Positions 1 to 58,142 of a DNA stretch of 64,000 nt are shown piece after piece (the first letter of the stretch is position 1; each line of letters starts with the position of its first letter). A model generated the notes under the pieces. That model made no database searches and was not told the DNA's origin. It saw only the letters and a list, made by a program, of their open reading frames with translations. This stretch comes from Centruroides vittatus (lineage: Eukaryota), in assembly GCF_030686945.1 (NCBI RefSeq), contig NW_027122668.1, forward strand, positions 124,099 to 188,098. Direction: 5' to 3'. The position numbers were made by a program, and so were the translations under genes.

Positions 1-107
1 GTCACGTGAGAAAATACAACCACGTGGTGTTTTAATGGCGGAAAGTTCGACGCGGTTAACCGAGATAACAAACATCAGAATGAAGAGGAAAGGATAATAA
101 ATTTAAC
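1..107. repeat. About 105-bp repeat unit containing two CACGTG palindromes; a second copy lies at 39143..39250
   Basis: Bases 1..107 (gtcacgtgagaaaatacaaccacgtggtgttttaatggcggaaagttcgacgcggttaaccgagataacaaac...ggataataaattt) recur almost identically at 39143..39250, differing by a 4-bp indel. Sequence past each copy is unrelated. Likely the end of a transposon family. Confidence 0.5.
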
Positions 108-11957: not shown

Positions 11958-12144
11958 TGAGTATTGAACACAAGACTGTTATTTATTAAACACTTGGCTT
12001 TTTCTGCCTTTATTTAGTTGAATACACTAAAATACTTTTGATTAGTTGAACTTTGACTAGTTGAATACATTTTGTATATTCAACTAAATAAAGGTGGAAA
12101 AAGCCAAATGTTTAATAAATAACAGTCTTGTGTTCAATACTCAA
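11958..12144. mobile_element. Foldback MITE with about 60-bp terminal inverted repeats
   Basis: tgagtattgaacacaagactgttatttattaaacacttggctttttc... is followed by its reverse complement ...gaaaaagccaaatgtttaataaataacagtcttgtgttcaatactca. The direct repeat aggctctgatta flanks the element at about 11943 and 12176. Confidence 0.45.
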
Positions 12145-27400: not shown

Positions 27401-30400
27401 TATAATCGACACTCCGTAACCGACCCCCTTTCCCGCTCTCGTCGTCCTTTTATTGTCTCTGGTCACGTTTTGCTTTTTCACCAACCAGCGTTATTTGAGT
27501 GTTGTTCCTCATGATTCATGTTTTCTCCATGGATCCAAACAATAAAACATTTTATGGCGAGTGATTTTGGTTCCGGCAGGTTTGAATTTTCACAATATTT
27601 TATACATATATCATGGCATAAATATAGTTTTCCACAGTAAACTTAATTTAGAATTCCAGTTAAAAATTGATTTTAACCAAATATAGTTTTTAAATTATCA
27701 AAATAACTTTTCAATTTTGAATACAGGTACTCCTCACTTTACGATCGAGTTCCGTTCCGATGACTACATCGTTAAGCGAATTGGTCGATAAGTGGGGAGC
27801 TTGCTCCAGGAGTATAGGATCGTTGTAAAATTATCCAAATTATTCAACAAACTTCAAATTTATTCATAAAAAGACTATTATAGTACGCTATTAGCATATT
27901 ATAGTACTATAAGACTATTATAGTATGCTTAGTGCACATGTCACCATTTGCCACTGAACGACACTCAAGCTGAGAAAGGGGATTCCCTGAATTGCAGGTC
28001 GAAACTCGATTGGTCGTAAGTGAAAGTGGTCGTTAAGCAGATAGGTCATAAAGTGAGGAGTACCTGTAAAGTTAAGAAAATAGTTAGCAAGAATGTATGG
28101 CTCCACTTCATCAAAATATGGAAACTGAATAGCTCAAGCTCAAAATAGCTGCTTTAAAGTGACTTTCTGGGCTGTTCACTATGCTTTCTCAAATTTCTTT
28201 CATCGTCACTTTCGTGCAGATGCTCAGCTTTTCGAGTTTTTCGAGCTTTTCGAGTCAGACTTACCAATGGTCATTTTCCTATTTCTTAAACTGTTTAGAA
28301 AGTAATTTGGTGATTATACAATCTGGTGCTCGTGAAGTTTCGCACTCGTATTTCTGATGTTTTATACCACGTAACAGTATCTTTTCGATGCTGGTTCATA
28401 AGTGTAGAAATAGCCATTTTTGACATGTTACTGTAGTAATAACAATAATAATAATGGGCAGTATGACAGTAAAACATTATTAATTTACAGTTAAAATCTT
28501 TTAAAGTGTATGTAATAACCTTGTTGAAATGTAAAGAATATAGAAATTAACTTTCTACAGTTCATACAGTAAAATTTAAGACAAAATTTATTGGAAATTT
28601 TGCAATTTAACCGAATTAAAATTTTTATTTCCTGAAATACATTTAATTAATAATTGATTTTAAAAAACTTAGTTAAAATGTCACAAAGTTTTTCCTATTG
28701 TGAATTGTCAGATAGAGTTAATATGATACAGAAATAATTAATTTTTAGAAATAAGTTTTTACTTTATATTTTTGAAATCAATATTTTCAAATCAAAATTT
28801 TAAAATTTCTATAACTATAGACGATTTTATTTAAAACAGGGAGATAAATCATTCTTTTTACATCCTGGCGAACATTTGGAAGCTGGTATTCAAGAAATAC
28901 ATGTGTTGAGCGATAACGAAGGGCTTGTTTTACGTGCAAAAGAAGCTTTTGTAGATACCACCGTAACACCTGTAAGAAAGACTTTTTTCCTCGTTTATCA
29001 GTTTAATAATCATATTAACTATAAATGGGTATAATTTTACAACTTTGAAAACTTTTTATTTTAAAGGCAGTTCAGCGTCAGCCAGGAGATAGATGGATGA
29101 TCAGTGGTGCAGCAGAATATATACCTCCAAACGAAGTAGAAATTTTAGCGAAAAGAAATGCTATTCCTCTTGATGAAAATGAAGGAATATACGTTAGAAA
29201 TATTAAAACTGGAAAGGTAAGAGGAAATTTTTAAAAATTTTAGATAAATATGTTTTATCATTATAAGAAAGTTAGTTGGCTAAAAGTTTTATTTCTTTCA
29301 GCTATATTTTAATCTCAATAATAATGATAGAATGTACCTGTACATATTCTATTTAATAATAGATATTATGATAAATATTTTATTAACTGGATAAATAAGA
29401 CTACAATATAATATGAATTAAGAGTTCTGCCTTGGGCATGCGAGGCCATGCAGAGCAGTTTCTCCAGTGTGGTGGAGTCTGTAAACAAAAAGTCCAACTC
29501 CAGGAAATTTGTATGGTGTGACTCCTACCTCAGTTTTTTTTTTTTAAAGTAACACTAAGTAGATTCCTTTTTTAAGAAAGACATCATGTGCAGTGCCTGA
29601 ATATTTTATTTAACATTTCTCTATAAAATGTTTTTACTAAAATTTGATGATGGTAAGAATCAAAAAATGGATATAGCAAATTTACCTCAAAAACCTTTAG
29701 AGTACATAAACACACATCTTAATAGCCAAAAGAATTCCACTTTTATTAGTTAATTATGAAAAGTTGATTTTAAATTTAATTATTTTAAAGAAGAAAAATT
29801 AAATACAATAAATGCAAAAAATAACGATTTGATGACTGACGTAATAGCGAGGTTGAGGCCGAAGTTTTAAATGCGAAAACGTGTAAGAAAACGGACGTTC
29901 GGCACCGCTTTCCTGTAAGCCTAGAAGTTTTACAATGGTGTTTGGTGTCAGTGGAATCACGCTCGACATTCCAAATGCCATTGTCAAACTTCTAGGCTTA
30001 TCGGAAAGTGGCACCGAACGTCAGTCTTACACGTTTTTGCGTTTAAAACTTCTGCCTCAATCTTTTTAATAAATTGGTTCATAAAATAGTTTCTCCTGCT
30101 CTGGCTAGTTGACTAAACTGAAATATACAGTAGAATTTAAAGAAAAATATTTTTTTTTTCCAAATTTTGTCATCTTGGACCAATGGGTGCAGTCATACCC
30201 TGAGAACTTAAACCAGTGAAAAATAAGCTGGAACAATCTTATTAATTAAATTTTGTAGATTTCTCCTTTCTTAGTTTGTTGCAGTTAGATTCTGATCTTT
30301 GTTTTACTTTTTTCATTGATTTTTCTATTGACTGTTTTAAGACCAAATTATGATATCAAAGCTATAATAAATTACTCAAAACCAATAGAAGGGCAGTGAA

Positions 30401-33400
30401 AAAATTAATCAATCAAATTAGTAAAAAAAAAGTTGATATCCAAAGTAAAACATCTAAGATGTAAAAAATTATGGCACCCAAAATGAAAGTCAAATTTTTT
30501 TTTCTTGGGCTTCTCTTTGGTAAAGATGAGCTTAGCTTTTCGAAGCGATACCACATGCATTTACTTTCCAGGCGCAATCCCACGACTAACTACAAGTAAT
30601 CACTTGTAGTTAGTCGTGTTAGATTAATACAGATTAGTGGTGGAAATAGTGATTTTTATCCACTTGTCACTGGTGGGCCGTAGCTTTTACTAATTTATTT
30701 TCTGAAAGTACACACATCATGTATGAAACGACCTTTATGATTAATATCATTTTGATATCTAAATTAATTGAAGAGTCCATTTTCTAAGAAATTTCTTTAG
30801 ATACTAATTAAAAAGTGTATTTTTTTTTTTTTTTTACTTCACATTTTACAAATAGTAAACTTTGAGGTTGGAGTCAAAAGAATTTTACTGACTCCACAAC
30901 ACTTGTTTCTCCTCCTATTTTTGAATGTCCACTTGATATTTATACATGTGTAAATCATCTTATTTCACTACCAAATAAAATCTTTGTAATAATGCTAGTG
31001 ATAACTTTTAAAAAATAAAGCAAAATAATCACTAGTATTATTAAAAATAAAAAATAATTACAGACTTTAATAGCTCACTAGATAATATATTTAAGTATTA
31101 ATGTTTATATTATTTTTAACAAAAAAATGAAAATAGGTTCGTGCAGTCTGTGGAGAAACGTACATGATGAATCAAGATGAAGAACTTTGGGAAAAAGAGC
31201 TGTCGCCAAATGTCGAATCACTTTTGTCGGCTCATTACGATCCGATGGCCGATCGTGGACGGTGGGCAGATAAACAGTCTGCTACTTCTGCTGTTTCCAG
31301 AGATAAAACAAGAGTAATAACTTTTCGTGTGCCACATAATGCAGCGATTCAGATATATGATTACAAAGGGAAAAAAGCACGGTAAGTTGAAAATTTCACA
31401 AAAATACAGTAAGACATTATAATTTTTTTTTTTTTTTTTCCAATTTCTAAATTATTTCATATTTAAATTATGATTTAAATGTATTTCAAATTGTTTAGAA
31501 CAATATACTGAATATTACACAAAAATTGTTTGTAATTTTTAAATTTCATTTTCAAAATAGTGTGGTTTTTGGTCCAGAATTGGTTATGTTGGGACCGGAC
31601 GAACAGTTTACGCAACTAAGTTTATCAGGTCACAAGCCAAAAAAGCCTAATGTGATTCGGTCTTTGTGTCTTCTTCTGGGACCAGATTTTTGTACTGATG
31701 TCATTACTGTTGAAACAGCCGACCATGCTCGCTTACAACTTCAGCTTGCATATAATTGGTAAAAATTTCGGATAATTGTATAAGAAAATCTGAATAGTGT
31801 TTTTGATACTTTGATGATTTAAATTAAGAATATAATTGTTTTTAAATAATTGAAAATAATTTTATGTCGATAATTATTGTTATTTATTATTTAGGCACTT
31901 TGATGTAAGTCAAAAGGATGACGCGACAGCTTCTAAATTATTTGCGGTACCAGATTTTATTGGTGATCTTTGTAAAGCCGTAGCATCTCGCATTAGAGGA
32001 GCCATAGCATCGACTAATTTCGATGACTTTCATAAGGTTAGTAATTATTGTTGATGAAACACCGTTAATAATTTTGAGAATCCGATAACATTTTATGGAA
32101 TTGTTAAACAGAATTCTGCTACAATCATCAGAGCTGCAGTTTTTGGCTATGATTCTGATAGAAAGATCAGAAATAGATTAATCTTTCCACAGAATAATTT
32201 AGTAGTAACTAGTGTAGATATACAAAGTGTAGAACCTGTAGATCAGCGAACTAGAGATTCTCTTCAAAAATCAGTACAACTTGCAATTGAGATAACAACT
32301 CAAAGTCAAGAAGCAGCTGCCAGGTAACAAAGAAATGATGATTAAAATGCTTTATTAAATGTATATATTTTTTGTTTATTAATATTTTACATACTTTATA
32401 GACATGAAGCAGAAAGAAGAGAACAAGAAGCCAGAGGAAAATTGGAAAGACAAAGAATTTCCGACGAAGTAGAATCCGAACGAAGTCGTAAGGATCTTTT
32501 AGAATTACAGGCAGCTAGCATGGCAGTAGAAAGCTGCGGACAGGCAAAGGCAGAAGCAAAAAGCAAAGCCGAAGCCCTGAGAATTGAAGCAGAAACAGCC
32601 GTCGAACAAGCTAAATTGAAAGTTGATGCTATGACAATTGAAGCAGTATGAATCTTTTATGTTCCTTTTAATAGTTTTTCATTTATTGTAATAATCATAA
32701 TAATAGAAAAATAGAAAACTGAAATCATTTTCTAATATATTAATATTAAAGTTTCCTTTTATTTCTATTACATCAGATAGTTTTCAAACATTGCATTTGT
32801 TCAAATTTTTTTTATAGTGAATAATTTTGACTTTAGATATTTTCCTACTATCCTCTATTAGACAGGCTTGAATTAAACTTTATAAATACATTGAAATAAT
32901 TATTTAAGAAATGTTTTTAAATTGCTGCTGTTATATTTAAATAATTTCTTAAAAGGAAGCAGAATTGGAAAGATTGATGAAGGCCAGAGATGCCGAAATC
33001 AGTTATCTTCGCGAACAAGATGAATTGCAGATTAAGAAATCAAAAGAATTGGCAGAAATAGACGTACAGAAATGCAAGGATATAATAAGTGCTCTTGGAC
33101 CCGACACAATTCGTGCCATAGCTCTGGCAGGACCAGAACTACAGGTAAATTGATACGATATAAAATAGTTAATAATTCATAGTAGAGCTTCAGTTTTAAA
33201 ATAGTTTATCATATAAAAACAAATATCAAAATGATATTGCCAAGAAGTTGTTTCTTAATTACTTAATGAAATATTTACAAATATATAATTGACTACAATT
33301 TTGAGTTTACTTTTGAAAGTCTGTCTGTTCAGTCTGAGTTCAAGCTGAAGAAATACACATGTATGAACACCTATGTGTAAACTACATGCATTTCAGCTTT

Positions 33401-33620
33401 TCTAGTTCTTTATAATAAAATGAAAAGTTTATTTGCAAGAAACTCAAACAATATTGTCATAAATTCATTTTATTTTCAGGTAAAGATTCTTCAAGGACTT
33501 GGACTTCATACAACTCTCATCACTGATGGAAATTGCCCCATAAATTTATTTAATACTGCACAAGGATTGATAGGAAATTCCTTATTGGAACCACCCACTA
33601 AAATACAAAAGGTCGAATGA
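18456..33620 (+). CDS. MVP: Major vault protein, copy 1: intact 14-exon gene, 858 aa
   Basis: The translated exons match the MVP family end to end: [33 protein letters not shown]; [15 protein letters not shown]...[22 protein letters not shown]; [23 protein letters not shown]; [14 protein letters not shown]; [16 protein letters not shown]; [19 protein letters not shown]; RVVFGPELV...[32 protein letters not shown]; IRGAIAS..FDDFH; [33 protein letters not shown]; LLELQA.SMAVES.G.AKAEA.S.AEA.RIE; ALGP.TIR..A.AGPE.QVK.LQ.LGL..TLITDG..PINLF. Exons: join(18456..18598, 21464..21659, 25751..25871, 26183..26409, 26512..26748, 28840..28971, 29067..29216, 31137..31381, 31561..31758, 31895..32036, 32112..32323, 32402..32645, 32956..33144, 33480..33620). 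All introns are GT-AG with consistent phase. The total is 2577 nt, or 859 codons including the tga stop at 33618..33620. An acceptor, tgtttag|, immediately before the ATG exon implies an untranslated exon further upstream. Confidence 0.88.
19829..19856. repeat. (TTAG)7 microsatellite, present in copy 1 only
   Basis: The run tagttagttagttagttagttagttag is absent from the matching position in copy 2 (about 44990). Confidence 0.6.
20994..21420. mobile_element. Tc1/mariner-like MITE (TIR cagtagagcgtcgaaaagtggaac, TA duplication), present in copy 1 only, 43 bp upstream of MVP exon 2
   Basis: Filled site: aaataaa ta|cagtagagcgtcg...cgacgctctactg|ta ctataattt. The empty site in copy 2 (about 46735) reads aaataaatactataattt. 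The exon 2 acceptor is at 21463. Confidence 0.6.
22504..22727. mobile_element. Palindromic 225-bp MITE (same family as 6626..6854) in MVP intron 2
   Basis: tagtgaggttgaggcagaagttttaaacgtgaaaacgtg ... its reverse complement. The duplicated image is at 47816..48038. Confidence 0.55.
23479..23735. mobile_element. hAT-like MITE (TIR cagggccggcc, 8-bp duplication tgtgcaga), present in copy 1 only
   Basis: tgtgcaga|cagggccggccttctcg ... gatggccggccctg|tgtgcaga. Copy 2 (about 48910) has the empty site gactgtgtagaagttaattc. Confidence 0.55.
27011..27599. other. Copy-1-specific insertion of about 590 bp (GC-rich, unknown nature) in MVP intron 5
   Basis: Copy 2 (about 52110) reads ttaatatt|ttatacat without interruption. 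Copy 1 has gtgggtgcgcctggaagtgg...ggtttgaattttcacaatatt inserted between the direct repeats aatatt. It has no recognisable TIR, tail or coding signal. ORF 27317..27514 is unsupported. Confidence 0.4.
29844..30062. mobile_element. Palindromic 225-bp MITE (same family) in MVP intron 7
   Basis: tagcgaggttgaggccgaagttttaaatgcgaaaacgtgtaag ... its reverse complement. The duplicated image is at 54352..54570. Confidence 0.55.
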
Positions 33621-35473
33621 TTTTTCAGTACGTAAATATAGTAATTCACCACCTCCTTAACAAGTTACTGAATATTTCTTTGTCTGCAGGAATAAGGAAC
33701 TCGCTAAGGCCAATGTAAAATTGGATGACTGCCATTTTCATTCCTTAAAATAATTACTGTTACTTGCAAGTGTTAATGAAGTTTAAGACTGTGTGCAAAC
33801 TCAGATTTGACATTATTTTGTTGTTGAAATATGAGCATTCTATTTTTAATACTAATGATACAAATTGTTGTTTAAAATCAAATATATTTTTCTGCTTTTG
33901 CAATTTCTGTAAAATTAAACAGCTTTTCAAGTTTGTCTACATACCATGTGAGGGAAATTGATGTGCTTATAACAAATAAAAATGTATGCAGATGTTGATT
34001 ATTTATTTATCTAAATACATCTGCTAGTAGAATATATATATATATATTTATTCTACTAGCAGGCCAGTGTTGCCCAGGTAAAAAGTAATACAAATAAATA
34101 TTAAAATTTAAGCATTGCATAATAATTAATGGGGCTTTATTAGGTTTAATGCATTATTATATAATTTTCACTGCATCAAATTGAAATTATAGGATTCCAG
34201 AGGATTTCATCCATAACAATTACCCCTGCAGACCCAGCAATGTTTGGGACCCACAATTGGAAGAAATTTTAAGTTGGTAAGAAAGTGCAGTGAGATTTTA
34301 CATTGAAAGTTCTGTAAAGAATATTTTGTACATTTCATTACAGTAGCAAATCTTAAGGTGTTTTTTTGTATATGTAAAATTATCTATATCTACCCAAATG
34401 TTGGTTATTTGGAAAACATTATTGTTTGTATTGTTTCCAGGGAAAATAAATTTATTTGTAAATAATGTCATTGCTAACAAACTATTAGTTTAAGATGCTA
34501 AACTAGTTGATAAGTTATCTTTGGGTTCTGTAAAACTGACAAAGACAAGAGGATGCAATGTTATAACCAGTTTTCTTTTAATGAAAACAATGTTATGTGA
34601 AAATATGCCTTCCTTTCGTCTTCACAATAACTAAGTCCCAAGAGACCTATATTCCGCAACTTTTTTCTAAATTCTTTCCACCTTGTAGACATCGTTTTTT
34701 TTCCTCTATACCCATTGTGGGTTTGACCACACCCACAATGGAGACCAACAAGGGGTGAGGGATGGGATCTAACATGAGTTTAACTAAATGGGAAAACTCT
34801 GGGGCATTGCTTGCCCAGATTCAAGCCTGTCCCCAGAATGTTAGGCTTTACTGCCTTGGCCATCCAACCATCTCATGTTTCTTAACTATCTATGGGAAAC
34901 ATGTATATGCCGAAATTGGTTTTAACAGGAACGTAGACAAAGCATTCTCTCTAATAATGGTCAGATGGACGAGGTAGTTAAGGCATCAGCCCACTGCTCT
35001 GGGGATCCAAGATTGAATTCAGGTGGTCAAAAAAGATTTACTCATGGATCAGGTAAAAGATGAGCTCTTCAAAAAATTTGCAAGGTCCCTACTGTTTTCC
35101 ATTAAAGTACTGCAAGTTAGCTTATATTTTCTGCAAGATCCTAGTAACTGAAAAATTTGGTTTGATCAGTCAGATGGCTTAGAAGTGTACAGAGAACATA
35201 CAGGCAACAAATACACTATTTCTTATATGTAATTAAAACATAATTAGCAAATTCTGAATTATAAGTCAATATTGAAGATGATGATAATAATTAATATAAT
35301 GTGTAGCAAATCAACAACAAGAAGATCTTATGGATTTTATACATTATCAATACTACACCTTAAATTCTTGTATAGAGTTAATTTTCTTCTTTTCTGTATT
35401 GTTGGCATGCCATTAACTTCTCATAGATGTGCTAAAAAATTTCATTAGATAATGCTAATAAAATATTTGTATA

Positions 35474-35805
35474 CAGGGTGGGCAGCGAAAACGAAACGGC
35501 AGAGTGTTCGTGTTCGTCCAATCAAATCGCTCGGACAGGTCGATTTTATTCTCGAGGGAACATCTTATGCAATAAAGTTTTTGCAAATCTGAATATTAAC
35601 TAAACAAACATTTTTTTTCCGAAATAAATGTTTGTTTACTTAATACAAAATAAATGAGTTTTTAAATTTTTTTGTTGTCTGTTGTATTCAGAATCGCAAA
35701 AACATTATTGCAAAAGATGTCCCCTCGAGAATAAAATCGACCTGTCCGAGCGCTTTGCTTGGACGAACACGAACACTGCCGTTTCGTTTTCGCTGGCCCA
35801 CCCTG
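35474..35805. mobile_element. Foldback, mariner-like MITE (TIR cagggtgggcagcgaaaacgaaacggcagagtgttcgtgttcgtcc..., about 110-bp arms, TA duplication) lying just inside the 3' edge of duplication copy 1
   Basis: ta|cagggtgggcagcg...cgctggcccaccctg|ta. The arms are about 110-bp inverted repeats around an AT-rich centre. The identical element closes copy 2 at 59996..60329. The two copies share only the 6-bp TATATA after the MITE right TIR (35806..35811 and 60330..60335) and then become unrelated. Confidence 0.6.
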
Positions 35806-35814
35806 TATATAAAC

Positions 35815-37951
35815 TTATATAGAAAAAAGATATATTGCTACTAATGTATTCTATAATAGAGAGTAACTTATAAAAACCTCTACAATTATTTTATTTTCAA
35901 GATAAATTGTTACATAGAAATGATTTTCATTCATTATAACTATAAGTATTTAAAAATTACTAACCAGTAATGACTTTTCCAACAAATCTATTGACTTGAA
36001 AATTCTTCTAGAGATTAATAGTTTTCCCAAATTTTCTCTGGAATCTTCAGATAAAAATTTATTATGGTTTTTATAAATAAATGAAAAAACATATTAAAAT
36101 AATTAATAAATTAAAAGTTTTACTTAAAATGGCTGATAGTATTTTAATTAAAATTATGTATACACTGTATTTTTTAATTGGCCTATCAGTGAACGTTTTA
36201 ACTGTTTTACATAATTCTGCAGAGACGTAGTCTCAATAAAAGGGTGTCTGTGCGAACAAACACTGTTCTGGGTGATTAGACATGGCGGCAAGAAAGACCA
36301 CTTAGTTTTTTCAAATTTTTACCTAATAAGCAGTCGTAGAAAATATCTTGTGGGCAATAACAGACGAATTTATCTGCTAAATCATTCAATCCCGCATCAT
36401 CCAAATCTCGCAGAAGTTCTAAGAGTTCATCGGCGTATAATAGAAACAATGATTTAAAAGCTTCTATAAACCTACGAATTAATATATATTCCTCTTCTGA
36501 TTTCTTTCCTGAAAGATCATCAGATAAATATTAAGATTCGATCATAAAATTTTTGTATTAATTAATTTTTGAATCTTTCTTACCCAATTTCGAAGACTTG
36601 CAATATTTTAGTACTGAAATGTAACTGTTAATTCTGAGTTTCTTGAATTTGTTACAACATGGTATTAAATATTTAATTATTTTAAAGAATTTTACGATGT
36701 CATCGTCTCCTTTCTGGTAGGGGAATAAGGTAAAATGTTCGAATTTGAACTTATTGTCAGCATATTTGAATGCGAAGTCGAGTAATACGAATTTGAAAAA
36801 CTTCACTTCATCCAGAGTTCTCTAAAAATTATTTAACGGGTTAATTTATCAATTGTTTTTAAATTTTACGAGTAAACTTTATACTCACCAAAAATTCGGA
36901 ATTTATATATTCTGTAGAGAATTCATGAACAAAAGATTCAACGTTTTCTATCATACTCATTGTGATAAAACATTTCATTTTATTCTTGTCATTCAGGCGC
37001 AAAAAATAGGAGCTTTCGGACATTGCCTAAAAATGAACCTTACCTACTTAAGATTATTTATTAAATTTTTGCATACTTATTATGTATAAAAATATTACTA
37101 AATTCTAAAATATACTCATGTATAATCACACGATAAGAGAGTATTGAGATATCCGCTTTCGAATTTGGTCCTTTTTTTGAGCGTGTTCGTCATTCGATTC
37201 ACATTCAAGCAAATTAAACCGATTCCTGAGAATAGTACTGAAATCAGCTTGATTTACATGGCTATGATGTTTGGAACATGCAAAGCACTTCCCATTATAA
37301 AAATGAGACAATCCGGATGAAACTCGAATCCGGACTCTAGGAGTAAGCCGATGCCCTGACTACAAGGCCATTTAAACATATTTTAGCATTCGGTAGAGAA
37401 ATTATAAAACAAATTCAGTTACTAGACTTAATTTGCAACTTAATTGCAAAAAACCAAAATGATGTCATTATTACAAATGCTAGCATATCACGTAATTTGC
37501 AAATAATGGAGAAAATGTCTAATGTTGAAGCAGAGATAAAGAATTAATAACATTATTAATATATAACTTAATTTAATTTTAATTAAAATAATAATTTTGT
37601 GCGAAATTTGGGCTATGATAGGTTCGTATACTAATGAAGGAATTAATATTATGGAAGTGCCTCTAGTTGTTACATAAGAAATTTTTTAATTTCAAATTAA
37701 TACGTGTGACATGAATAACTACAGATTATATCTGTCAACTACAATATTAAAATAGGAAAACTTACAAAATATATTTTTCTTCGGAATTTTTTGCATCGAA
37801 GAATTCCAGGAGATCGAATGGATTCCAAATTCGATTTCTTAATAACGTATAAAAGTTTTAAATTTGCTTCTGTATTAACTTCGGATTCATTTTCAGAAAC
37901 ATAATTTTTTTCCTCGGATTCCGTGTCCGAATCGATGCTCTCCTCCTCCAT
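35815..37951 (-). CDS. Unknown-family protein-coding gene, 6 exons, 287 aa, acidic Ser/Glu-rich N-terminus
   Basis: Reverse-strand exons join(37766..37951, 36889..37026, 36584..36821, 36323..36508, 35965..36044, 35815..35850). Every intron is GT-AG (donors gtaagt, gtgagt, gtaaga, gtaaaa, gttagt) with matching phases. The total is 864 nt, or 288 codons including the taa stop at 35815..35817. Protein: MEEESIDSDTESEEKNYVSENESEVNTEANLKLLYVIKKSNLESIRSPGILRCKKFRRKIYF / AMSESSYFLRLNDKNKMKCFITMSMIENVESFVHEFSTEYINSEFL / RTLDEVKFFKFVLLDFAFKYADNKFKFEHFTLFPYQKGDDDIVKFFKIIKYLIPCCNKFKKLRINSYISVLKYCKSSKL / GKKSEEEYILIRRFIEAFKSLFLLYADELLELLRDLDDAGLNDLADKFVCYCPQDIFYDCLL / GDSRENLGKLLISRRIFKSIDLLEKSLL / NTLVAIYLFSI. 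I do not recognise the family. Confidence 0.55.
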
Positions 37952-38759
37952 ATCATCTTTAAAATGAAATCAAATTGATTATAAATACGTATAAAAGATT
38001 AAGCAGAAATACTCGCATTGGCCAAGTTAAAAACAACCAAAATTTGAATTGTAATGTTTGTGTTTATTTCTTTCTTCCCAGTCAACCACTGCTAGTTGCC
38101 TGGAAAGAAATACTGTTTATACTAATGTCACCGTGAAAACTCTCCGTGCTGGTAATCTGCAATCAAACTATACAAAGTTTAAACCTTGTATAGTTTGGCA
38201 GTGAAGGGAAGTGTATTAACACCTAAATAGCGACTCGTGAAAGTTCTCCCGGGAGGCACCCCTCCTTGACAAATTGCCACGTGTTGCCCACCAAACTAAC
38301 AACGTAATTAAATGCCATACGGGTTTTACAAGTGGACAATCGTGTTTTGAGGAATTGAGGAACAAAATTGCTTGTATTGGCCCCCTCTTCCACTCATTTC
38401 ATTTTGTCAGTCTAATTTCATAACACCCTGTAAAATGTAAGAGTTTATAATAAAACATTCCTGAAAAATCTTCATTATTCGCCTTACTCAACTTTAAAAT
38501 TTCGCTATTTTAGTTTTATATTTACGTTTTTAGTAATTCGGTATCTAATTAGTGTTACTTTTTGGCCTTTTAATTTTTTAAATAATAAAATTTTTTTTAA
38601 ATAATAAAAAATTAATGTGTGTTTTGTGTATATAATTATAATTTAAAAAATGTAAATGCTAGTAACAAGTAAAGCCGGATGCACACATGCGGCGCGGCAA
38701 GGAAAAGCGGCAGAATGACGTCACTTTTAATTATTATGCCTTTGTGTCCTTAATTATAG

Positions 38760-39006
38760 CTTAAATTTATCTTTGTATACTAAGTACAGTACATTTATCA
38801 ATTAACAGGACTTATTATACTGGAAAATTATGGATGCAGATATTTAGTCTTACTGATCAGAAATATTATAAAAATAAAAAATATAAAAAAACTAAATAAA
38901 AAATATTATTTCTGATCAGTAAGACTAAATATCTGCATCCATAATTTTCCAGTATAATAAGTCCTGTTAATTGATAAATGTACTTAGTATACAAAGATAA
39001 ATTTAA
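38760..39006. repeat. Near-perfect hairpin: two inverted arms of about 105-110 bp around a 35-bp A-rich loop
   Basis: Left arm: cttaaatttatctttgtatactaagtac(agtac)atttatcaattaacaggacttattatactggaaaattatggatgcagatatttagtcttactgatcagaaatattat. The loop follows, then the exact reverse complement. The only mismatch is a 5-bp agtac bulge. The flanking direct repeat gacgtcactttt lies at 38707 and 39007. ORFs 38866..39123 and 38978..39175 are artefacts of the palindrome. Confidence 0.7.
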
Positions 39007-39142
39007 GACGTCACTTTTTCTCGCCGCAGAAGTCGATTTTGTGCCGCTTTTCTCGTGCTGCAAAAGTTGGTTGAATTCTACTTTTGGCGGCGGTCGCCGC
39101 CAAGAGACGTTTCTATCAGCCAATAACAGTTCGTCTGGTTGT

Positions 39143-39250
39143 CACGTGAGAAAATACAACCACGTGGTGTTTTAATGGCGGAAAGTTCGACGCGGTTAAC
39201 CGAGATAACAAACAGAATGAAGAGGAAAGGATAATAAATTTGGTAACATT
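39143..39250. repeat. Second copy of the 105-bp CACGTG-containing repeat unit found at 1..107
   Basis: gtcacgtgagaaaatacaaccacgtggtgttttaatggcggaaagttcgacgcggttaaccgagataacaaacagaatgaagaggaaaggataataaattt. Confidence 0.5.
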
Positions 39251-40641
39251 CTAGGAGGGGAAGGGGGGGTTAACCCCCCCAAACGATAGACCCCCTGTGC
39301 GATCAAAAAATGTCTAATGAACCACACCCCTACGGGCGACCCCTCACGAGATATAGCCCCCCCAAAATCGGGCCGCGCGAGATCGCGGCGCGCGTCGCTC
39401 AGCGCGCGCGTCTCCCTGCTAAGCGCTCGCGTCGCTCAGCGAACGTGATAGCGATATGAAGCACACGCGACAAAACGTACGTCATTTCCGGTCACGTGAC
39501 TCCGCAAAATGGAAAATATAAAATCGTTTATATATAGTCACTTTTGAAGGTTAGTGTAGAATCTGTTTTCTTCGCCTTTTACATCGGCAGTTAGAATGTA
39601 TAGTTCTTTTCGCTTAGCAGCGCGCCAGTCAATTGACGTGATCTAACTCACGTGTATTGGGTTGATAATCGGTTCAGATAGCCTTTACCCATTTGGGTAA
39701 TCCTATTTCACACTGAGTACGATTATATGTCGGTGGCCGACTCGTAAGGACCAATCGTAACGGGTGTTAGAAATCGTTTTAATATGATCTTATTTCGTTT
39801 ATAAATTCTTACGAAAAGTCTAAATAATACCATCTTTTCTCGTTACGTCGATAATGTTTTTTAATATAAGGAAATGGTTAGTAAGTTTACAAGCGGTTAC
39901 AGTGGCAGTCGCGCGCGATATCCTAGCAAAGCGACGCGAGCCGCGACCTCACGCGCGATACTCTTAGCAGAGCGACGCGCGCCGCAATCTCGCGCGACCC
40001 GATTTTGCGGGTAAATAAAAATGCGTATTATTTTCGTTAAAGTTATTTATTAATAATTATCTACGTTATTGAAATATTAATATAGCCATAAAAATGGTTG
40101 GAATTCGAAACCAACGAATAAATTATTGCTTTAAGTAATCTTTATAACAGAAACTAAAAATAGTATCGATATTTTAATTTATTTTATTATATACTATAAT
40201 TAATATTAATAATCGAAGACTTAGAAATCGTTTAATTCTATTAAATTGTCCTTTCTTTTAAACTGCTCGAATTGCCCTTTCTTTTTCCTTTACTCGGATC
40301 GAGTCGATTAAGCCTAAAGCTGTATTAAAAGCGGTATTAAAGGTGGTCGCTCTCGCTCGTTTACCTCGCTTTCGTTTCGAAGAATAATTGGTAAGGAGGG
40401 GGGACCCCCCAAATTATAGACCCCCCTGTGCGAAAACAAAGGGAAAAACAAAATTTTGGTATATTACGTAGGTGTCACGTGACCGGGATGACGTAGGTAT
40501 AGTCCTCCCGATTCGATGGCGCGGCCCGATTTTGGGGGGGCTATATCTCGTGAGGGGTCGCCCGTAGGGGTGTGGTTCATTAGACATTTTTTGATCGCAC
40601 AGGGGGGGGTCTATCGTTTGGGGGGTTAACCCCCCCAAACG
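39241..40641. mobile_element. Composite non-autonomous TIR/foldback element with about 120-bp G/C-homopolymer-rich terminal inverted repeats and CACGTG palindromes
   Basis: The left terminus 39250..39370 (gggggggttaacccccccaaacgatagaccccctgtgcgatcaaaaaatgtctaatgaaccacacccctacgggcgacccctcacgagatatagcccccccaaaatcgggccgcg) is the reverse complement of 40500..40640. A nested second inverted pair (39370..39440 against 39900..40010, the cgcgagatcgcggcgcgcgtcgctcagcg motif) lies inside. A direct partial copy of the terminus sits at 40380..40440. CACGTG occurs at 39493, 39650, 40478 and 40651. ORF 40414..40638 reads through the TIR and is spurious. Confidence 0.5.
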
Positions 40642-41715
40642 TCTTCACCCACGTGGTATTCGGGAGCTTTCTCGTTCTCGTCTTTCCTCCTTCAGCTCTG
40701 ACTCAAAAGTGACTCTTTGTCTTGGTTCTACCCCTGAGGGCTGCATACAGTCCTATTGTCCATAATGGGGTCACCTATTGTTAAGCCGTTAAGCACCGGT
40801 CAGGGAAGGGTTCCAGGAAGTAAAGATAATATGAATAGGAAAGAGAAGGAAAAATATATTCTAAGTTAAAATAAAATATAACTATATATTACACAAATGG
40901 CATTTAGCCACAATATATCTACTGACCAGGTTGTCATTTTGACATTTTAAGCATTAATATATAAATTTCAGTAATATTTTAAAGATCATTGACTGAGATT
41001 TTATATAAATAATAAGGTATTATTTTAATTGCATGTCTTAACAAATATTTTAATAATTTCTTTAATATATTTCAATAATAATAAATCTAATGTTTATGTA
41101 AAAAAAAAAATTGTTAAGTATGATTTATGCTGTTTACTTTTACGCATGAAATCAAATATGTATTTTTAGTCGGGAAATATATTTTGTAATGCTTGTTTTT
41201 ATATTACTTTAATGTTGTTAATCATCATAAATTTTAATTATTTAATGTGTTTATCAGGTTTCTTTGAATTACATTAGTAATTATTCTAAAAATTTATTTA
41301 ATTTATTCTAATTTTTTAAATGTTTTTCAGTAAATATTAATTTTTTTTAATTTAAAAAAGATTTTCTTCTGATTAAATGTAATCTTAACAGTTTTATTTG
41401 ATATAAGAATAGTGATTCTGGATTTTAAGATTATGAAAAATAATTGCTTCAATAAAGTATGTTTTAACAAATTTTTGTGCTAGAAAGGGATGAAAGGTTC
41501 TCCTAGTGTTGAAGAGAAATTAAAGGAATTTTTCATCTTTTTATTAGAAGTTGAATCCTATAAACTTTTAGGACAAATTATACCTTTGTATAATAATTAA
41601 AAGACCTTAAAAAGATAATAATGTGAAATGATTTGAATTATTAATGTTTAGAAAGTTAAAATTGCTTTCAGTCTTTCATTTTACCTCAAAATTAATTAGA
41701 ACTATATAGGCCTAT

Positions 41716-41810
41716 CGTATTTTACGGACTATAAGACGCACCTTTTTCTTCGAAAAATTGCCTCCAAAATTCAGGTGCATCTTATAGTTCGTAAAATACG
41801 GTAATTGTTA
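41716..41810. mobile_element. Small palindromic MITE (cgtattttacggactataagacgcacc ... ggtgcatcttatagttcgtaaaatacg), copy 2 only
   Basis: A perfect inverted repeat with about 30-bp arms. It sits at the site where copy 1 carries the unrelated Tc1-like MITE 17887..18191. Confidence 0.45.
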
Positions 41811-42287
41811 ACGTATATAATTAACTTTATTATAATATACAAACATAACTTTGTGGTAATACAAACTATTGTGCCTCCAGGTCTAAGGGTCACCACAGCT
41901 AACATACAACTGCCTGGAGACAAAGGAACATGACAAAGGTCAAAGGTGAGGGGTTGCCTAACTAGGTCAAGGGGCAATTCGGTGTGGGTTATCTCCTGGA
42001 GGTTTATATACCTAACAATAATTATATAACAAATACTAAATAATATCTTTGTATATCTTTACTCATATATTTAATTATAATTATTTCTATGAGTAAAGAT
42101 TTAGTTGATTATGGAAGTTACTGTGTTAAAGCTATAGAAGTTTTTAAATATTTTCTGTTATTGACCAGTGTATTAAAATTATAAATCTGTACAATCCAAA
42201 TAAAGAAGTTTTAAAATTAAATCATACAAAATTTTATATGAAAATTGAATTATTTTCTAATGTTTTCTATATTGTTTAGTTGGCGAA

Positions 42288-45200
42288 ATGACCACTCCAA
42301 AGCATAATCGTAATGAGGAGAGTATTTATAGGATCCCACCGTATTATTATTTACATGTTTTGGACCAGACATCAAATGTTACAAGAGTGGAAGTCGGTCC
42401 ACAGACATATATTCGCAAGGAAAATGAAAGGTATGAAAGTTAACTTAAATAAACCTGAACAAAGCTATAATAATCTCATAGTACAAGTTATATATGAAAT
42501 TAAATTGTAGTATTAAGTCTGCACCATATTAATTTTAAGCTGTAATTAATTGATTTATCAAACTGTTTATTTGTGACTGTCGGCCATATTGTATATATAT
42601 ATTTTATTGTATATAGTTGTAATCCTATCTTATTTTTGCAATTTCCTCCTTTTTCCTTTGTCTATTCTTTCTTAAACTTTCCATGACTGTTATCGCCATG
42701 TGGCTGGATTAGACGTTCCGAGAATCGGTAGGGACAATAACAGGTAGTGTGGCCTGGGGAAAAAGTGGCTAAGAGAGGGGTCACTTTTCGACTAGATACG
42801 AAGAGAGACGGACGGCAAGAGCGAGGCTCGATCGTGATTTCCGAGAGAGGAAAGAAGTGCGATAGTCGAGTGAAGAGCCGAAATATAGAGACCGGCATAT
42901 TGGAGAACCCCAATAATTGAGAGAAGAAAGGATAGTGAAGAAAGCCACTATCGTCGGATCCAGGTTCTACACAAAGTATCAATACGTATCCGCCGAAAAA
43001 GAGAAAACCCCGGGTGAATCATCCCTTCATTTCTTCTACCTTTCTGCTGTCCTATCTTTCTTATTTTTCCTTAATATTAAGAGTTTAGATTTAAGTTAGG
43101 TTAGTCAAGTGTTTACGAGGGACCGATTGTTACGCGCTTAAAAATTAACACACCTCGAATTGTAAATCAGTTGGGATTCCTTAACAACAAGAACCTTATT
43201 TGTTCTAAGTGGAATAAAGGAACATTGTTTATTATTGTAGTCGTTGCAGTGTCCTTTTCTGTACGTTTCATTCGCAGGCCATACTGCCACACTCTTATAG
43301 AACACCACATATTCTTAGAATTTTGAGTTATAAAATATTTCTTTTACTAATGATTGATTTTGAAATTTCCTTTTGCCAATATACATGGTATGATCCAAAA
43401 GTTCGGGGAATGCAGTAATCTATGACAACAAAAGCATGTATTTGAAGTTACAGCGTATGAAATGGATTCTACCAACTCACCTCTACGTGTTCAGGTTAAT
43501 TTCACCCATGTCATGTGATTAAATCGTGAGCGCTGCTGGTTTTTCCGGAGATAGTTACCTTTGTCCTGCGACGTAATCAAAGTGGAGTTTCAAGAACAAC
43601 CTCCAACATTTCGACTTCACCGTGACCTTTCACCGTAGAATCACCATACACCTTTCTTAGCAATTTTAAAATCTCCGTAGGTGTTTTCCCTAAACGCTGC
43701 CAAAATTTAATGTTGGAGGTTGTTCTTGAAACTCCACTTTGATTACGTCGCAGGACAAAGGTAACTATCTCTGGAAAAAAACAGCAGCGCTTGCAGTTTA
43801 ATCACATGACATGGGTGAAATTAACCTGAACACGTAGAGCTGGTTTGGTAGAATCCATTTCATACGCTGTAACTTCAAATACATGCTTTTGTTGTCGTAG
43901 ATTACTGCATTCCCCGAACTTTTGGATCGTACCACGTATATACTTTTTTTTCTCTTTACTATTCAATGCATATTTATTCCAATATACAATTGTAAATCAA
44001 AAACTATTTATTTTTAATACATTAAAATTATTATTCTTTACTTTTATTAATGTTCTTACTTTTAAAAATAAACCATGTAAATAATGAAATACAGTAAAAC
44101 TTCTGTAACTTGAAGTTTTTTCCTGCCTCTTTCAAGTTAGACAATTCAAATTAGAGAACAATACTGATAAATGCCAATTCCAAGTAGATTAGATCTCTTG
44201 CATTTTATATAAAGAATCTTTGATAGTTTTTTGTTTTAAACAGCTGTTTAATGCCTTTTCATCATGTTCAATGTAGCTAACAGAATCAGTTTTTTGCAGG
44301 TAGAGTACATCTTATTGAGATAAAGCAACAGATCATCTCATTTTGGACTGGAATGTTGTCTATAAATGGGTGTTGGACAGTATATACAACTAACTGTCTG
44401 AAAACTTCATGAAAATCAACAATTAGGATCACTTCAGACAGAATAAATATTAAAATTCAAGTCAGGATCAAGTCAAATATAAATCTAAATTGAACCAAAT
44501 ATTTCACAAGATTCTAAAAAAAAAGTTACAATAGAACACATGTAAATGTCACTATAGAATATGAAAAATATAAAAATATAGAAATATAAGAAAAAAAAGA
44601 CTTACTTTTGAAAAGAATAAGATTGTTATTGCAATAAATTTGCACTTCCACAACAACCTAAATCAACTTTCACAAGGTTTTGGTTTCTTTTCTTCCCATA
44701 CTTGTGGTGCCATCTACAAAAGTTCTTCCCTCTTTCTTCTCCTGTATATTTCCATTTTATGGGTAGAAGACAGAACTAGAGTTAAAATGGATTCTAAGCA
44801 ATGAATTCTGTAAAACTGTAGCTCCTCAATTAATTAACGAACATTGAATCTACTAATTAAAGTACCTTACAATAGAATATTACTTATATAATATAAGAGT
44901 ATAAATAAAACATAATTTTATTATCATAGTGATATTTTGATAATGATAAGTATTAGGTGACAAAATCGAGTTCTATGGTCTTAACCAAACAGTGACAGAA
45001 CTGAGGGAGCAATTGTAAAAGGTGCAGTGCGAAAGGAAGACATAATGCATGGTCCAATTAAACAAATTTAATTTTGTGCTTAAAAATATATATACAGTTT
45101 CTTTAAGGTTTCCCACTGTTGTACAATTCCGGCTACCTTCTGATGGTTTCAACGTTACAGGCGGTTCAGCTAGTTGATCTTATCCCAACTACTAACCAAC

Positions 45201-48200
45201 AATGGTTCGTGTCTAATAGTCTTTGGCTACTTTGTAACTAAAATTTTTATGTACGGTGCAATTACCGCTAGTTAACACTAGTCAAGTTGGCTACTTTTTA
45301 AATTGTAAATTCCATGTATCTAACATCCAATTTATTCTTTTTATTATGTGTTACCTTTCAAATGTCTACTAGACACTGTGGAATAGCCTTTGCCCTTTTA
45401 ACTGTCTTCATTATCACAGTATGTCGTGCACTACACTCCAGCCATCTCAATACTGTATATCTTAATATTATTGTAAAATGCAACTAGCATTATTTGAATT
45501 AACAACAAAACTGGTTACTGACTACATCGATGTACTTATGTTACTCTATATTCTTATAATATTGTATTGTATTCAAATTGAACCAACCTCTTGTTGGAAA
45601 AGTACTCCCATTTTGTATATACTGTTAATTCTGTACACATTTGTATTCTATTGCATCTTGTTTTAATTGAATAAATGGCGATGCAGATGCCCATGGGGTC
45701 CCTTGGGGGCCTCGTGGTTGCTATTTTCACACTTTCCTATCTTTCTTTGTTTCTTCTTCCACCTAACTTCTCTTTTCTTATTCTCTTCTTTCCGCTTCCA
45801 ATAGGGCTAAGTCTGATGCTAAGTATGGATAGCCCCCTTTTCCTTTAATCCAAAGTCCAAAGTCTCTTGCACGATTCCTAATCTAACTTAATCTAATAGA
45901 AGGTGGATAGAAGAAGGGGAAGTAGGAAGAATAATAGAATAGGGGGTACCCAATTTATCGGCAAGTAGTCAAAGTATTTCTTCGTCTCGACTTCCGAGTC
46001 TTGAATGTTTTATTCTCTTGCAGATCGGCTGTCTCGGAGTTCTCCTCCAGATCTATCAATATACTTCTTTCTTGATCCGTTCTCTATGGTCTCCTTTTTC
46101 ACAGTGCTTGTTGGATTCCACTTACGAACCTTGCCACCACACATCCATTACCTCTTGTGTCCGGCCCAAGAATGTTTCTTGGAATTTCTATTTTCCCCTC
46201 CAGCCTCGTCGCAGACTATTGTTTTCACTCTACCTCCTGGTGGGCTAGGGGTGAGTCTGAGTTCTCAGAAGTTCGAAACAAAGGGAATTGGAAGGAAGGA
46301 TAAATTTATAGAAATAGAATATAAAATTAAATTAAAAACTATACAAAATAGAATGGTGTACAGCCACATGATATTTGTGAGGGTGACAAAAATGAGGGAT
46401 GAGTGTAATCCAGTCTCTATGAAAAATTTGATCACATTATGAATTTTTTTTATTCTAGAGTTTAGTTTTGATGTTACAGGAATTCCTTGACTTTTGGACA
46501 ATTCCCTCCACCTCTTTTTTTGTACATTATATTTTGATACCTCTGAGTTACTTTTCTTAGATAAAATTTGGATTTTTATACATTTTCAGCAACAAAAAAA
46601 AACATTTGAGAGATTGTGCAGTGACTTTCTACTGATCTAGATTTTTCTAACATAAAAATCAATTCATTTTGTAAAAAATTACAGTAGAGGCCATCATAAT
46701 ACCATTTTGTTTTATGTAAAATAGAAATAAATACTATAATTTTTAAATAAAATTTTATAATTAAATATTTTCAGAGTTATTTTGGGACCCGAAAAAATGA
46801 TCATTGTTCCTCCAGGTCATTATTGTGTGATACAAAATCCTGTGATAAGAGACAATGATGGAATTATTCAATATGATCTATATGGTCAAAGTAAACTGCG
46901 ACATGCTGACTTAGAAATAAGATTACAGCAAGATCCTTTTCCTTTATATCCTGGAGAAGTTTTGTTTCAGGTCAGAAGATATTAAATATTCAATTTTTCT
47001 TAAAAATTATTTTAAGTTTAAGCACATATTAATTTATACATCATAATTAATTTTATAACTTTATTGTACATTGATAAAGAAAGTACAGATTCTATCAATA
47101 TTTGATTTATATAGAAGACTAAGATTTTATTGTCGTGCTATCTATATCCTGGCTGATTAAGTATATCTTACCAAATTACATATCATCTATATATTTAACT
47201 AGCCAAGTTACAGTTTGATAATAAACCCAATTTTATCATTTAAGTAATAAAATCAATTATGTAGTGTATATTTTTGATATTTATTAATTAACGTCAACTA
47301 ATTTTAAGTGGATGAATAAAATAACTTTTTATACTGATATCAATAAACAATTTATTAGATTATATTATCAGAATTCATCTTTGTCTTCATATTACTCAAT
47401 TTTTCATTTTGAAATAGTAATATTTGTGTTCTTTAATTTTAATTTTGCAATTTCATCAAATTTAAGTTACATTTGTGCTATTGTATGCTTGTAAAACAAA
47501 TATTTTTTTCAAGAATACACTAACAAAACATATATAAACGTTTTGAAAATATTTGTGTTAGATGTTTAATTTTAATATTATTCTTAATATACATTATAGT
47601 CATTCTTTACTTATTAGTATATTAGTGTTCTCCAGAAATTTTTACCAGTGAGATGAAATGTGTGAAGAGGTTCCAAAAATGGGTTTAAATTAAACATTTA
47701 TTATAGAAACTTATTAAAACAAAACTAGAGGAAAAACACCTCCATTGTTAAAACGGATGAAAGATCGGATTCTTTGTGCTAGTCATATGAAACTGGGCAA
47801 GGAAATAAATACTATTAGTGAGGTTGAGGCAGAAGTTTTAAACGCGAAAACGTGTATGTCGGACGCTCAGCGCCGCTTTCCGTAAGCCTAGAAGTTTGAC
47901 AATGGCATTTGGAAAGTCAGTGGAATCATGCTCAATATTGCAAACATCATTGTCAAACTTCCACGCTTATAGGAAAGTGGTGCTGAACATCCGACGTACA
48001 CGTTTTCTCATTTAAAACTTCGGCCTCAACCTCACTATTAATGTAAAACACAACACAATAAATGTAAACGAATGTTCTCCAGTAGAGATGGACCTATGAC
48101 AAGGCACTCGTATAGAAGTAAATAGAACATAGAAAAATTTTGGAAAGGGGAACGGTTAATTATGAAAGGAGACATTGTGTCAGGCCATTAAAATTCTAAG

Positions 48201-57200: not shown

Positions 57201-58142
57201 TCATTTATTGTAATAATCATAATAATAGAAAAATAGAAAACTGAAATCATTTTCTAATATATTAATATTAAAGTTTCCTTTTATTTCTATTACATCAGAT
57301 AGTTTTCAAACATTGCATTTGTTCAAATTTTTTTTATAGTGAATAATTTTGACTTTAGATATTTTCCTACTATCCTCTATTAGACAGGCTTGAATTAAAC
57401 TTTATAAATACATTGAAATAATTATTTAAGAAATGTTTTTAAATTGCTGCTGTTATATTTAAATAATTTCTTAAAAGGAAGCAGAATTGGAAAGATTGAT
57501 GAAGGCCAGAGATGCCGAAATCAGTTATCTTCGCGAACAAGATGAATTGCAGATTAAGAAATCAAAAGAATTGGCAGAAATAGACGTACAGAAATGCAAG
57601 GATATAATAAGTGCTCTTGGACCCGACACAATTCGTGCCATAGCTCTGGCAGGACCAGAACTACAGGTAAATTGATACGATATAAAATAGTTAATAATTC
57701 ATAGTAGAGCTTCAGTTTTAAAATAGTTTATCATATAAAAACAAATATCAAAATGATATTGCCAAGAAGTTGTTTCTTAATTACTTAATGAAATATTTAC
57801 AAATATATAATTGACTACAATTTTGAGTTTACTTTTGAAAGTCTGTCTGTTCAGTCTGAGTTCAAGCTGAAGAAATACACATGTATGAACACCTATGTGT
57901 AAACTACATGCATTTCAGCTTTTCTAGTTCTTTATAATAAAATGAAAAGTTTATTTGCAAGAAACTCAAACAATATTGTCATAAATTCATTTTATTTTCA
58001 GGTAAAGATTCTTCAAGGACTTGGACTTCATACAACTCTCATCACTGATGGAAATTGCCCCATAAATTTATTTAATACTGCACAAGGATTGATAGGAAAT
58101 TCCTTATTGGAACCACCCACTAAAATACAAAAGGTCGAATGA
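42288..58142 (+). CDS. MVP: Major vault protein, copy 2: same 14-exon structure, but a 1-bp insertion in exon 8 shifts the frame (possible pseudogene or sequencing error)
   Basis: Exons: join(42288..42430, 46775..46970, 50928..51048, 51360..51586, 51672..51908, 53347..53478, 53574..53723, 55658..55903, 56083..56280, 56417..56558, 56634..56845, 56924..57167, 57478..57666, 58002..58142). All splice sites are conserved GT-AG. Exon 8 is 246 nt, against 245 in copy 1. The extra c at 55814 (tctgctgcttctgctCgtttccagagataa, against tctgctacttctgctgtttccagagat in copy 1) puts a taa stop in frame. Other coding differences from copy 1 are mostly synonymous, apart from Gly to Asp in exon 3 (ggt to gac at about 51000) and Thr to Ala in exon 8. 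Confidence 0.75.
45219..45866. other. Copy-2-specific insertion of about 650 bp upstream of MVP exon 2
   Basis: Copy 1 reads ...tctaatagtctcttgcgcaattcc with no interruption at 20128. Copy 2 has ttggctactttgtaactaaaa...aatccaaagtccaaag inserted. ORF 45478..45666 is unsupported. Confidence 0.4.

Follow-up and report, generated by a model that had tools for sequence, protein, structure and literature searches.

A near-perfect 248-bp palindrome between two MVP gene copies of Centruroides vittatus is probably a young foldback/MITE-type insertion

The DNA analyzed here (the window) is a 64,000-nt stretch of the genome of the scorpion Centruroides vittatus (NCBI RefSeq assembly GCF_030686945.1, contig NW_027122668.1, positions 124,099–188,098 of the forward strand). 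It has a GC content of 31% and few long open reading frames (orfs); the GC content of the published C. vittatus assembly, built with Flye from PacBio CLR reads, is 30.85% (PMC11304958). A tRNA and Rfam scan of the window yielded no matches. The exon of OXSM (mitochondrial 3-oxoacyl-ACP synthase), at 7873–9219, is 99.8% identical to C. vittatus XP_067140072.1 and 97% identical to the C. sculpturatus protein. Self-comparison of the window revealed a tandem segmental duplication, in which 16817–35811 matches 40929–60335. There are two copies of the major vault protein (MVP) gene (CDS 18456–33620 and 42288–58142), the exons of which match C. vittatus XP_067140071.1, mostly at 100% identity; the MVP orthologue was recovered by using a 599-aa gene model. 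The palindrome described below, a predicted hairpin, sits in the 5.1-kb segment that separates the two MVP copies (35.8–40.9 kb), approximately 3.3 kb upstream of the ATG of copy 2.

We then compared the window with two loci of C. sculpturatus KZ494992.1, one carrying OXSM (L001, which begins in a 2,995-N gap) and the other carrying MVP (L002). C. sculpturatus has one MVP gene, and immediately after it comes the zinc-finger region that lies behind copy 2 in the window. Neither locus contains a counterpart of 35.8–40.9 kb, and the second MVP copy is also absent from both. As the segment that hosts the hairpin has no match in these C. sculpturatus loci, it is lineage-specific, and there is no orthologous site there. 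The substitution divergence between the two MVP copies is 7.1% at the 5′ end and falls steadily to 0.7% over the last 8.2 kb, a gradient that suggests gene conversion or a composite history. In addition, MVP copy 2 has a frameshifting 1-nt insertion in exon 8 (around 55794), and it is either a pseudogene or carries a consensus error of the PacBio CLR assembly.

Within the 5.1-kb segment, a gene fragment lies to the left of the hairpin:

36279–37951, minus strand: multi-exon gene fragment with its ATG at 37951, canonical GT donors, and an acidic N-terminus

This fragment has no Pfam or PDB match, and its sole relative among 1.84 billion protein representatives is an uncharacterized C. vittatus protein (XP_067140067-69), to which it is 36–50% identical in two exons and whose gene is at another place of this contig. 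The fragment is a diverged paralogue of this orphan protein, and the gene family is lineage-restricted. Its ATG lies 809 bp from the hairpin, in agreement with the original prediction, which had placed the hairpin about 0.8 kb upstream of the start of the gene in the spacer. The same prediction had described the hairpin as lying next to CACGTG-rich DNA, and this was borne out by counting: 6 of the 13 CACGTG sites in the window cluster just to the right, within 39143–40655 (39143, 39161, 39493, 39649, 40476, and 40650). The description of the surroundings as otherwise unique spacer DNA is correct for the flanks as compared with the rest of the window, except for 39141–39241, which is 97% identical to window positions 1–104. 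This duplicated segment of approximately 101–104 bp contains two CACGTG E-boxes, and the homology stops at the same base in both copies; it may be a promoter module or the end of a repeat. Its start is just 134 bp beyond the right end of the hairpin, and the position homologous to the hairpin next to the 1–104 copy, a potential paralogous empty site, lies just beyond the left edge of the window. Farther to the right, a CpG-rich 1.4-kb segment (39242–40660) adjoins the hairpin region; inverted repeats of 116 nt that are 96.6% identical (39263–39378 and 40519–40636) and contain G7TTAAC7 palindromes form its borders, and there is an inner inverted repeat (39359–39403 and 39967–40011). This segment may be a separate transposon with long terminal inverted repeats (TIRs).

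The hairpin itself consists of three parts:

38760–38869, plus strand: left arm, 110 nt, containing the GTACA tandem duplication and the mismatched T at 38866
38870–38902, plus strand: loop, 33 nt, A-rich, a degenerate (AAAAATA)n tract
38903–39007, plus strand: right arm, 105 nt, the reverse complement of the left arm; its final G (39007) is common to the right copy of a 12-nt direct repeat described below

The whole inverted repeat is thus a near-perfect palindrome of 248 bp (38760–39007). The two arms differ in two ways: a 5-nt bulge caused by the GTACA tandem duplication in the left arm (GTACAGTACA, 38784–38793), and a single T·T mismatch (38866/38906) four pairs from the loop. With approximately 99% complementarity between the arms (105 vs. 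110 nt), terminal inverted repeats are present. Tandem Repeats Finder (TRF) and a repeat finder found no internal subrepeats in the arms, the tandem structure being confined to the A-rich loop. The arms had originally been described as exact reverse complements apart from a 5-bp bulge; the positions (within 1 nt) and the bulge hold, but the T·T mismatch had been overlooked. Likewise, the loop measures 33 nt rather than the 35 bp given before, and its A-richness was confirmed. Fold prediction, which had been proposed as a check of the hairpin, gave a strong result. The predicted minimum free energy of the RNA is −152.9 kcal/mol, compared to −40.2 ± 4.7 kcal/mol for dinucleotide shuffles (z = −24.1), and that of the DNA is −103 kcal/mol (z = −24.3); none of the 200 shuffles folded equally well. 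In the predicted fold, the region forms an extended perfect duplex of more than 100 bp.

We next examined the borders of the palindrome, where a 50-nt GC/CpG profile and a search for direct repeats delineated the following features:

38650–38728, unstranded: left CpG-containing context, ~45–50% GC (50-nt GC/CpG profile)
38717–38728, plus strand: left copy of the 12-nt direct repeat GACGTCACTTTT, a putative target-site duplication
38729–38759, plus strand: AT-rich 31-nt piece AATTATTATGCCTTTGTGTCCTTAATTATAG, in the inserted block and outside the inverted repeat
39007–39018, plus strand: right GACGTCACTTTT copy (12 nt), immediately next to the right arm
39007–39241, unstranded: right CpG-containing context, ~45–50% GC, with a CCAAT-like site and two CACGTG boxes

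The 31-nt piece and the hairpin together form a block of 278 bp (38729–39006) with approximately 21% GC and no CpG, whereas the CpG-containing DNA on either side (~45–50% GC) stops at 38728 and resumes at 39007, from where it runs to about 39500. However, GC content is patchy in this neighborhood, 38550–38650 being AT-rich as well, so the compositional break alone is not decisive. The 12-mer GACGTCACTTTT occurs just twice in the 64-kb window, even with one mismatch allowed. We estimated the chance of such an arrangement by resampling the flanks from a first-order Markov model, which approximately preserves dinucleotide content, and scoring trials in which a direct repeat had one copy flush with an end of the hairpin and the other no more than 150 nt from its far end. 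Repeats of 12 nt or longer in this position arose in 11 of 200,000 trials (P = 5.5e-5), and the value for 11 nt or longer was P = 3e-4. A perfect CRE-like palindrome, TGACGTCA, at 38716–38723 overlaps the left 12-mer, and in silico deletion of the block together with one repeat copy produces a continuous CpG-rich sequence, ...GGCAGAATGACGTCACTTTTTCTCGCCGCAG..., in which TGACGTCA is intact. Taken together, the block, the compositional break, and the 12-nt direct repeat are, as read from the nucleotide sequence, the classical signature of an insertion with a putative target-site duplication.

The flanking is asymmetric, as the right 12-mer abuts the inverted repeat and the left 12-mer stands 31 nt away from it; in a classical TIR element, a duplication with a length specific to the superfamily would adjoin both inverted repeats. 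The intervening 31-nt piece is unpaired in both the RNA and the DNA folds, and no other source of it was found in the window, L001, or L002. We also considered whether it is a diverged copy of the arm terminus and rejected this, as the alignment score is 22 and the 95th percentile of the null is 25. The arms themselves end in C-TTAA-ATTTATC...GATAAAT-TTAA-G, and a TA or TTAA duplication is thus also possible; being palindromic, TA and TTAA are indistinguishable from the inverted repeat itself.

Searches with 29-mers and 33-mers of the arms, with up to three mismatches allowed, recovered only the two arms in the 64-kb window (0 matches expected by chance). Multiple dispersed copies are the property that defines a mobile element. 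The other 63.7 kb of the window contain no further copy of the arms or termini, which rules out only families above approximately 36,000 copies (95%), and neither do about 48 kb of C. sculpturatus DNA. The arm sequence had no matches in metagenome and viral collections, where scorpion DNA is not expected. BLAST of the arms against the window gave no match to a coding sequence. Only two orfs overlap the hairpin, both at the right arm and its flank:

38866–39123, minus strand: orf from the right arm into the flank, no Pfam match
38978–39175, plus strand: orf from the right arm into the flank, no Pfam match

The element is short (248 bp, or 278 bp with the 31-nt piece, compared to an upper limit of ~500–800 bp for MITEs), and no coding capacity was found in it. 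At curated (gathering) thresholds, Rfam returned no match, and identity as a microRNA (miRNA), a ribozyme, or a SINE was rejected on this ground; a miRNA precursor was also rejected because the structure is not a typical imperfect hairpin of 60–90 nt. A permissive Rfam search returned only plant long-stem MIR families at 50–55 bits (gathering thresholds 83–195), which are generic matches to a long hairpin.

The hairpin is surrounded by other palindromes. Approximately ten other fully self-complementary elements of 150–560 bp are present in the window, with arms that are 79–88% complementary and GC contents of 26–59%; judged by their arms, these MITE-like elements appear to be older than the hairpin. 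One palindromic family of approximately 225 bp occupies five places (6628–6850, 22500–22727, 29850–30063, 47813–48040, and 54357–54570), which represent three independent sites and two copies made by the segmental duplication; extrapolated, it would have tens of thousands of copies in the genome. Further self-complementary MITE-like elements lie at 11956–12145, 43379–43941, and 62495–62948. A Tc1/mariner-like palindromic MITE of approximately 345 bp, with ends of TA plus CAGGGTGGGC and arms of approximately 82% complementarity, is found at 35466–35813 and 59992–60333. This MITE terminates exactly at the 3′ boundary of each duplicated unit and may have been involved in the duplication breakpoint. 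Membership of the hairpin in any of the other palindromic families of the window was rejected, as it has no sequence or terminal similarity to them. On the genome scale, interspersed repeats make up 41% of C. vittatus DNA; they include 931,189 unclassified pieces (28% of the genome, mean ~230 bp), 131,005 DNA-transposon pieces, half of which are Tc1-IS630-Pogo (69,372 copies), as well as 59,660 LINEs and 28,475 Penelope copies (PMC11304958 supplement). In such a repeat-rich genome, the prior is high that a 250-bp AT-rich palindrome is repeat-derived, and among the palindromes of the window the hairpin is the only young and very AT-rich example of a structural type that is common here.

The arms of the hairpin give an estimate of its age. 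They differ by 1 substitution in 105 aligned positions, or approximately 1% (95% CI 0.02–5.2%), and by a single indel due to slippage. The C. vittatus and C. sculpturatus sequences differ by 7.3% substitutions over approximately 44 kb of aligned blocks, which include conserved exons, so that neutral divergence is probably above this value. The MVP duplicates differ by 0.7–7.1%, depending on the block. Given the gap between ~1% for the arms and 7.3% for the species, we infer that the palindrome formed after the C. vittatus/C. sculpturatus split, unless the arms are being homogenized.

The explanation that we favor, and consider probable, is that a young non-autonomous foldback/MITE-type element of approximately 278 bp (38729–39006) inserted here with a 12-nt target duplication. 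It builds on four features that the sequence itself shows: the palindrome, the abrupt change in composition, the direct repeat of 12 nt on either side, and arms that have hardly diverged. The landing site would have been CpG-containing, promoter-like intergenic DNA, on the CRE-like GACGTCAC, and the uninterrupted sequence before the insertion would have read ...GAATGACGTCACTTTTTCTCGCC.... The block would have arrived in one piece, through staggered cleavage 12 nt apart followed by fill-in, and would have been mobilized in trans by an enzyme encoded elsewhere. The insertion would date from after the C. vittatus/C. sculpturatus split. No host function is expected for the inserted block. The original prediction had offered a very recent foldback transposon insertion as one reading of the hairpin; in its general form this is supported by the CpG-free block, the 12-nt repeat, the arm divergence of ~1%, and the many palindromic MITE-like repeats of the genome, but the duplication does not abut the left arm.

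How such a block would be mobilized depends on which known system it resembles. MITEs are short (<500 bp), non-coding TIR elements that generate target-site duplications and are mobilized in trans (PMC5443660). Like the palindromic MITEs of insects that derive from Tc1/mariner or Bari elements (PMC5443660), the hairpin is short, AT-rich, non-coding, and nearly all inverted repeat, it lies near a gene start, its ends would allow a TA or TTAA duplication, and Tc1-IS630-Pogo elements and short unclassified repeats predominate in the genome of its host. Unlike them, it is single-copy in the DNA searched, and the duplication that is supported is 12 nt long and offset by 31 nt on one side. It also differs from the Tc1/mariner-like MITEs of the window, which have TA+CAGGGTG ends and 26–59% GC, in that its termini read AATTTATC... 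and its GC content is 21%. A TIR transposase producing TA ends (Tc1/mariner, the dominant DNA-transposon group of this genome) or TTAA ends would be possible. To our knowledge, however, 12 nt exceeds the duplications of the DNA-transposon superfamilies (TA, TTAA, or 2–11 nt), and an insertion of the endonuclease/retrotransposon type would fit better. Insertions of LINEs and Penelope-like elements, which use an endonuclease and a reverse transcriptase, have target duplications of variable length, and 12 nt is in their range.

The 12-nt duplication would point rather to such a staggered-nick, LINE- or Penelope-like route, along which two unequal head-to-head copies would produce a perfect stem with an unpaired loop. 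Twin-primed LINE copies and inverted, 5′-truncated Penelope-like copies would share with the hairpin a flanking duplication of the variable-length type, here ~12 nt; the 12-mer on the minus strand starts with AAAA (AAAAGTGACGTC), as at T-rich nick sites, and both LINEs and Penelope elements are abundant in C. vittatus. Copies of this kind derive from the 3′ end of an element encoding a reverse transcriptase, and Penelope repeats carry a hammerhead ribozyme, whereas the hairpin has no Rfam match to one; moreover, there is no poly(A) tail beside the duplication, and the A-rich tract is central. Drosophila Foldback (FB) elements resemble the hairpin in that long inverted repeats constitute most of the element, which snaps back into a hairpin. 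FB elements have arms made of tandem subrepeats and 9-bp target duplications. An FB element of the Drosophila type was rejected, as the arms here are free of subrepeats and the flanking repeat is 12 nt rather than 9 bp. An unusual reading is that the hairpin represents a class of palindromic elements that inserts with ~12-nt duplications by a nick-and-copy route and not by a TIR transposase.

Three other explanations were weighed against an insertion. The palindrome could have been made locally, from a resident arm and loop whose other arm was added by fold-back priming or by a replication template switch during break repair, an event that could tie in with the rearrangement that produced the MVP duplication and the 5-kb segment. 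Consistent with this, the palindrome is single-copy in all the DNA searched and lies within a rearranged, lineage-specific segment with no counterpart in the C. sculpturatus loci; near-identical arms are what a recent copy made in place is expected to have, and the asymmetric 31-nt piece and the loop could be plain local sequence. However, local formation leaves the exact 12-nt direct repeat around the AT-rich block unexplained, and the whole block, including the arm that would have to be resident, differs sharply in composition from both flanks. We consider this explanation unlikely. Still less probable, at well under the weight of a local origin, is an artefact of the PacBio CLR/Flye assembly, the palindrome or its near-perfection arising from long-read chimeras or consensus polishing of two pooled individuals; we regard it as highly improbable. 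The assembly is indeed based on CLR reads, was corrected with short reads, and pools a male and a female (PMC11304958), and the nearby MVP copy 2 has a 1-nt frameshift that is possibly a consensus error. Yet the palindrome is only 248 bp long, lies in the middle of a contig, and has an A-rich genomic loop; mechanical copying does not make a slippage-type 5-nt duplication and a substitution between the arms, and the 12-nt duplication that brackets the block is a biological signature. Chimeric CLR reads with a missed adapter form palindromes of read length (kb-scale) that are centered on adapter sequence. A SMRTbell-adapter palindrome was rejected from the sequence, on its scale, the loop sequence, and the arm differences.

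The third explanation takes up the other reading of the original prediction, a source of hairpin-derived endo-siRNAs. It is a dedicated hairpin RNA (hpRNA) gene, the transcript of which would be processed by Dicer into 21–22-nt siRNAs from the 105-bp duplex, and these would silence a complementary gene or transposon elsewhere in the genome. The arms of such a gene could still have come from a transposon. What identifies an hpRNA locus is the Dicer-2-dependent production of 21-nt siRNAs from a primary transcript that is capped and polyadenylated, usually together with clear antisense complementarity to the target that gave rise to it (PMC10317233). In favor of such a gene, the predicted fold, with its small loop and a perfect duplex exceeding 100 bp, would be an ideal substrate for a Dicer-2-type enzyme, and a gene start is 0.8 kb away from the hairpin, which is embedded in CpG-containing, promoter-like DNA. 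Like the Drosophila loci hp-CG4068, hpRNA1, Nmy/Tmy, and the de novo hpRNAs of D. simulans, it is a young, lineage-specific long inverted repeat, and one of the young Drosophila hpRNAs has arms of transposon sequence (PMC10317233). Unlike those loci, it lacks an antisense target within the window, L001, and L002: a search allowing up to two mismatches found no further occurrence of any 21-mer from the arms, and only the low-complexity loop has matches there. This includes MVP, OXSM, the orphan gene, the zinc-finger gene, and the rest of the ~110 kb. Also against an hpRNA gene, the arms have no similarity to any coding sequence of the window, the Rfam matches are far under threshold and fall into unrelated plant MIR families, and a genome with about one million repeat pieces sets a low prior for any young palindrome being a functional gene. 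An hpRNA gene at this site would thus be very unlikely, as far as the sequence allows it to be judged. That none of the explanations named here is the right one is a modest possibility, to which we give somewhat less credence than to local formation and more than to an hpRNA gene. The palindrome looks like the product of an ordinary event in a repeat-rich genome and not, on present evidence, like a dedicated small-RNA gene.

If the hairpin is a mobile element, it would add another young repeat to a genome 28% of which consists of unclassified short repeats, and it would help to define one such family by its boundaries, duplication length, and current activity. The insertion would place 290 bp between the CRE-like site and the rest of the CpG-rich, E-box-rich segment upstream of the orphan gene, and splitting off the CRE-like site in this manner could alter the regulation of that gene. 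Long perfect palindromes may, in addition, be fragile sites. Transcription of the region, if it occurs, would supply the siRNA pathway with the 105-bp duplex as a by-product. A newly arisen hpRNA gene, single-copy, specific to C. vittatus, and transcribed from the CpG-rich segment, is an improbable reading that would give scorpions their first described endogenous RNAi locus of the hpRNA type; relevance for endogenous RNAi in chelicerates would follow only if small RNAs and a target were demonstrated, and otherwise the value of the hairpin is mainly for annotation.

Two further observations concern the compared loci. In C. sculpturatus L002 (22018–27745 versus 28602–31817), a near-duplicate of the 3′ exons of MVP lies beside a 2.2-kb N gap and is annotated as a separate 339-aa "MVP-like" protein; it probably reflects a duplication in the assembly and not another gene. 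In the window, 4041–5060 (plus strand) is a single-exon orf of 339 aa with no Pfam match, the product of which, by eye, resembles a hydrophobic multi-pass membrane protein. In C. sculpturatus, where no gene is called at this place, the region is conserved with 90% DNA identity (L001 7544–9412).
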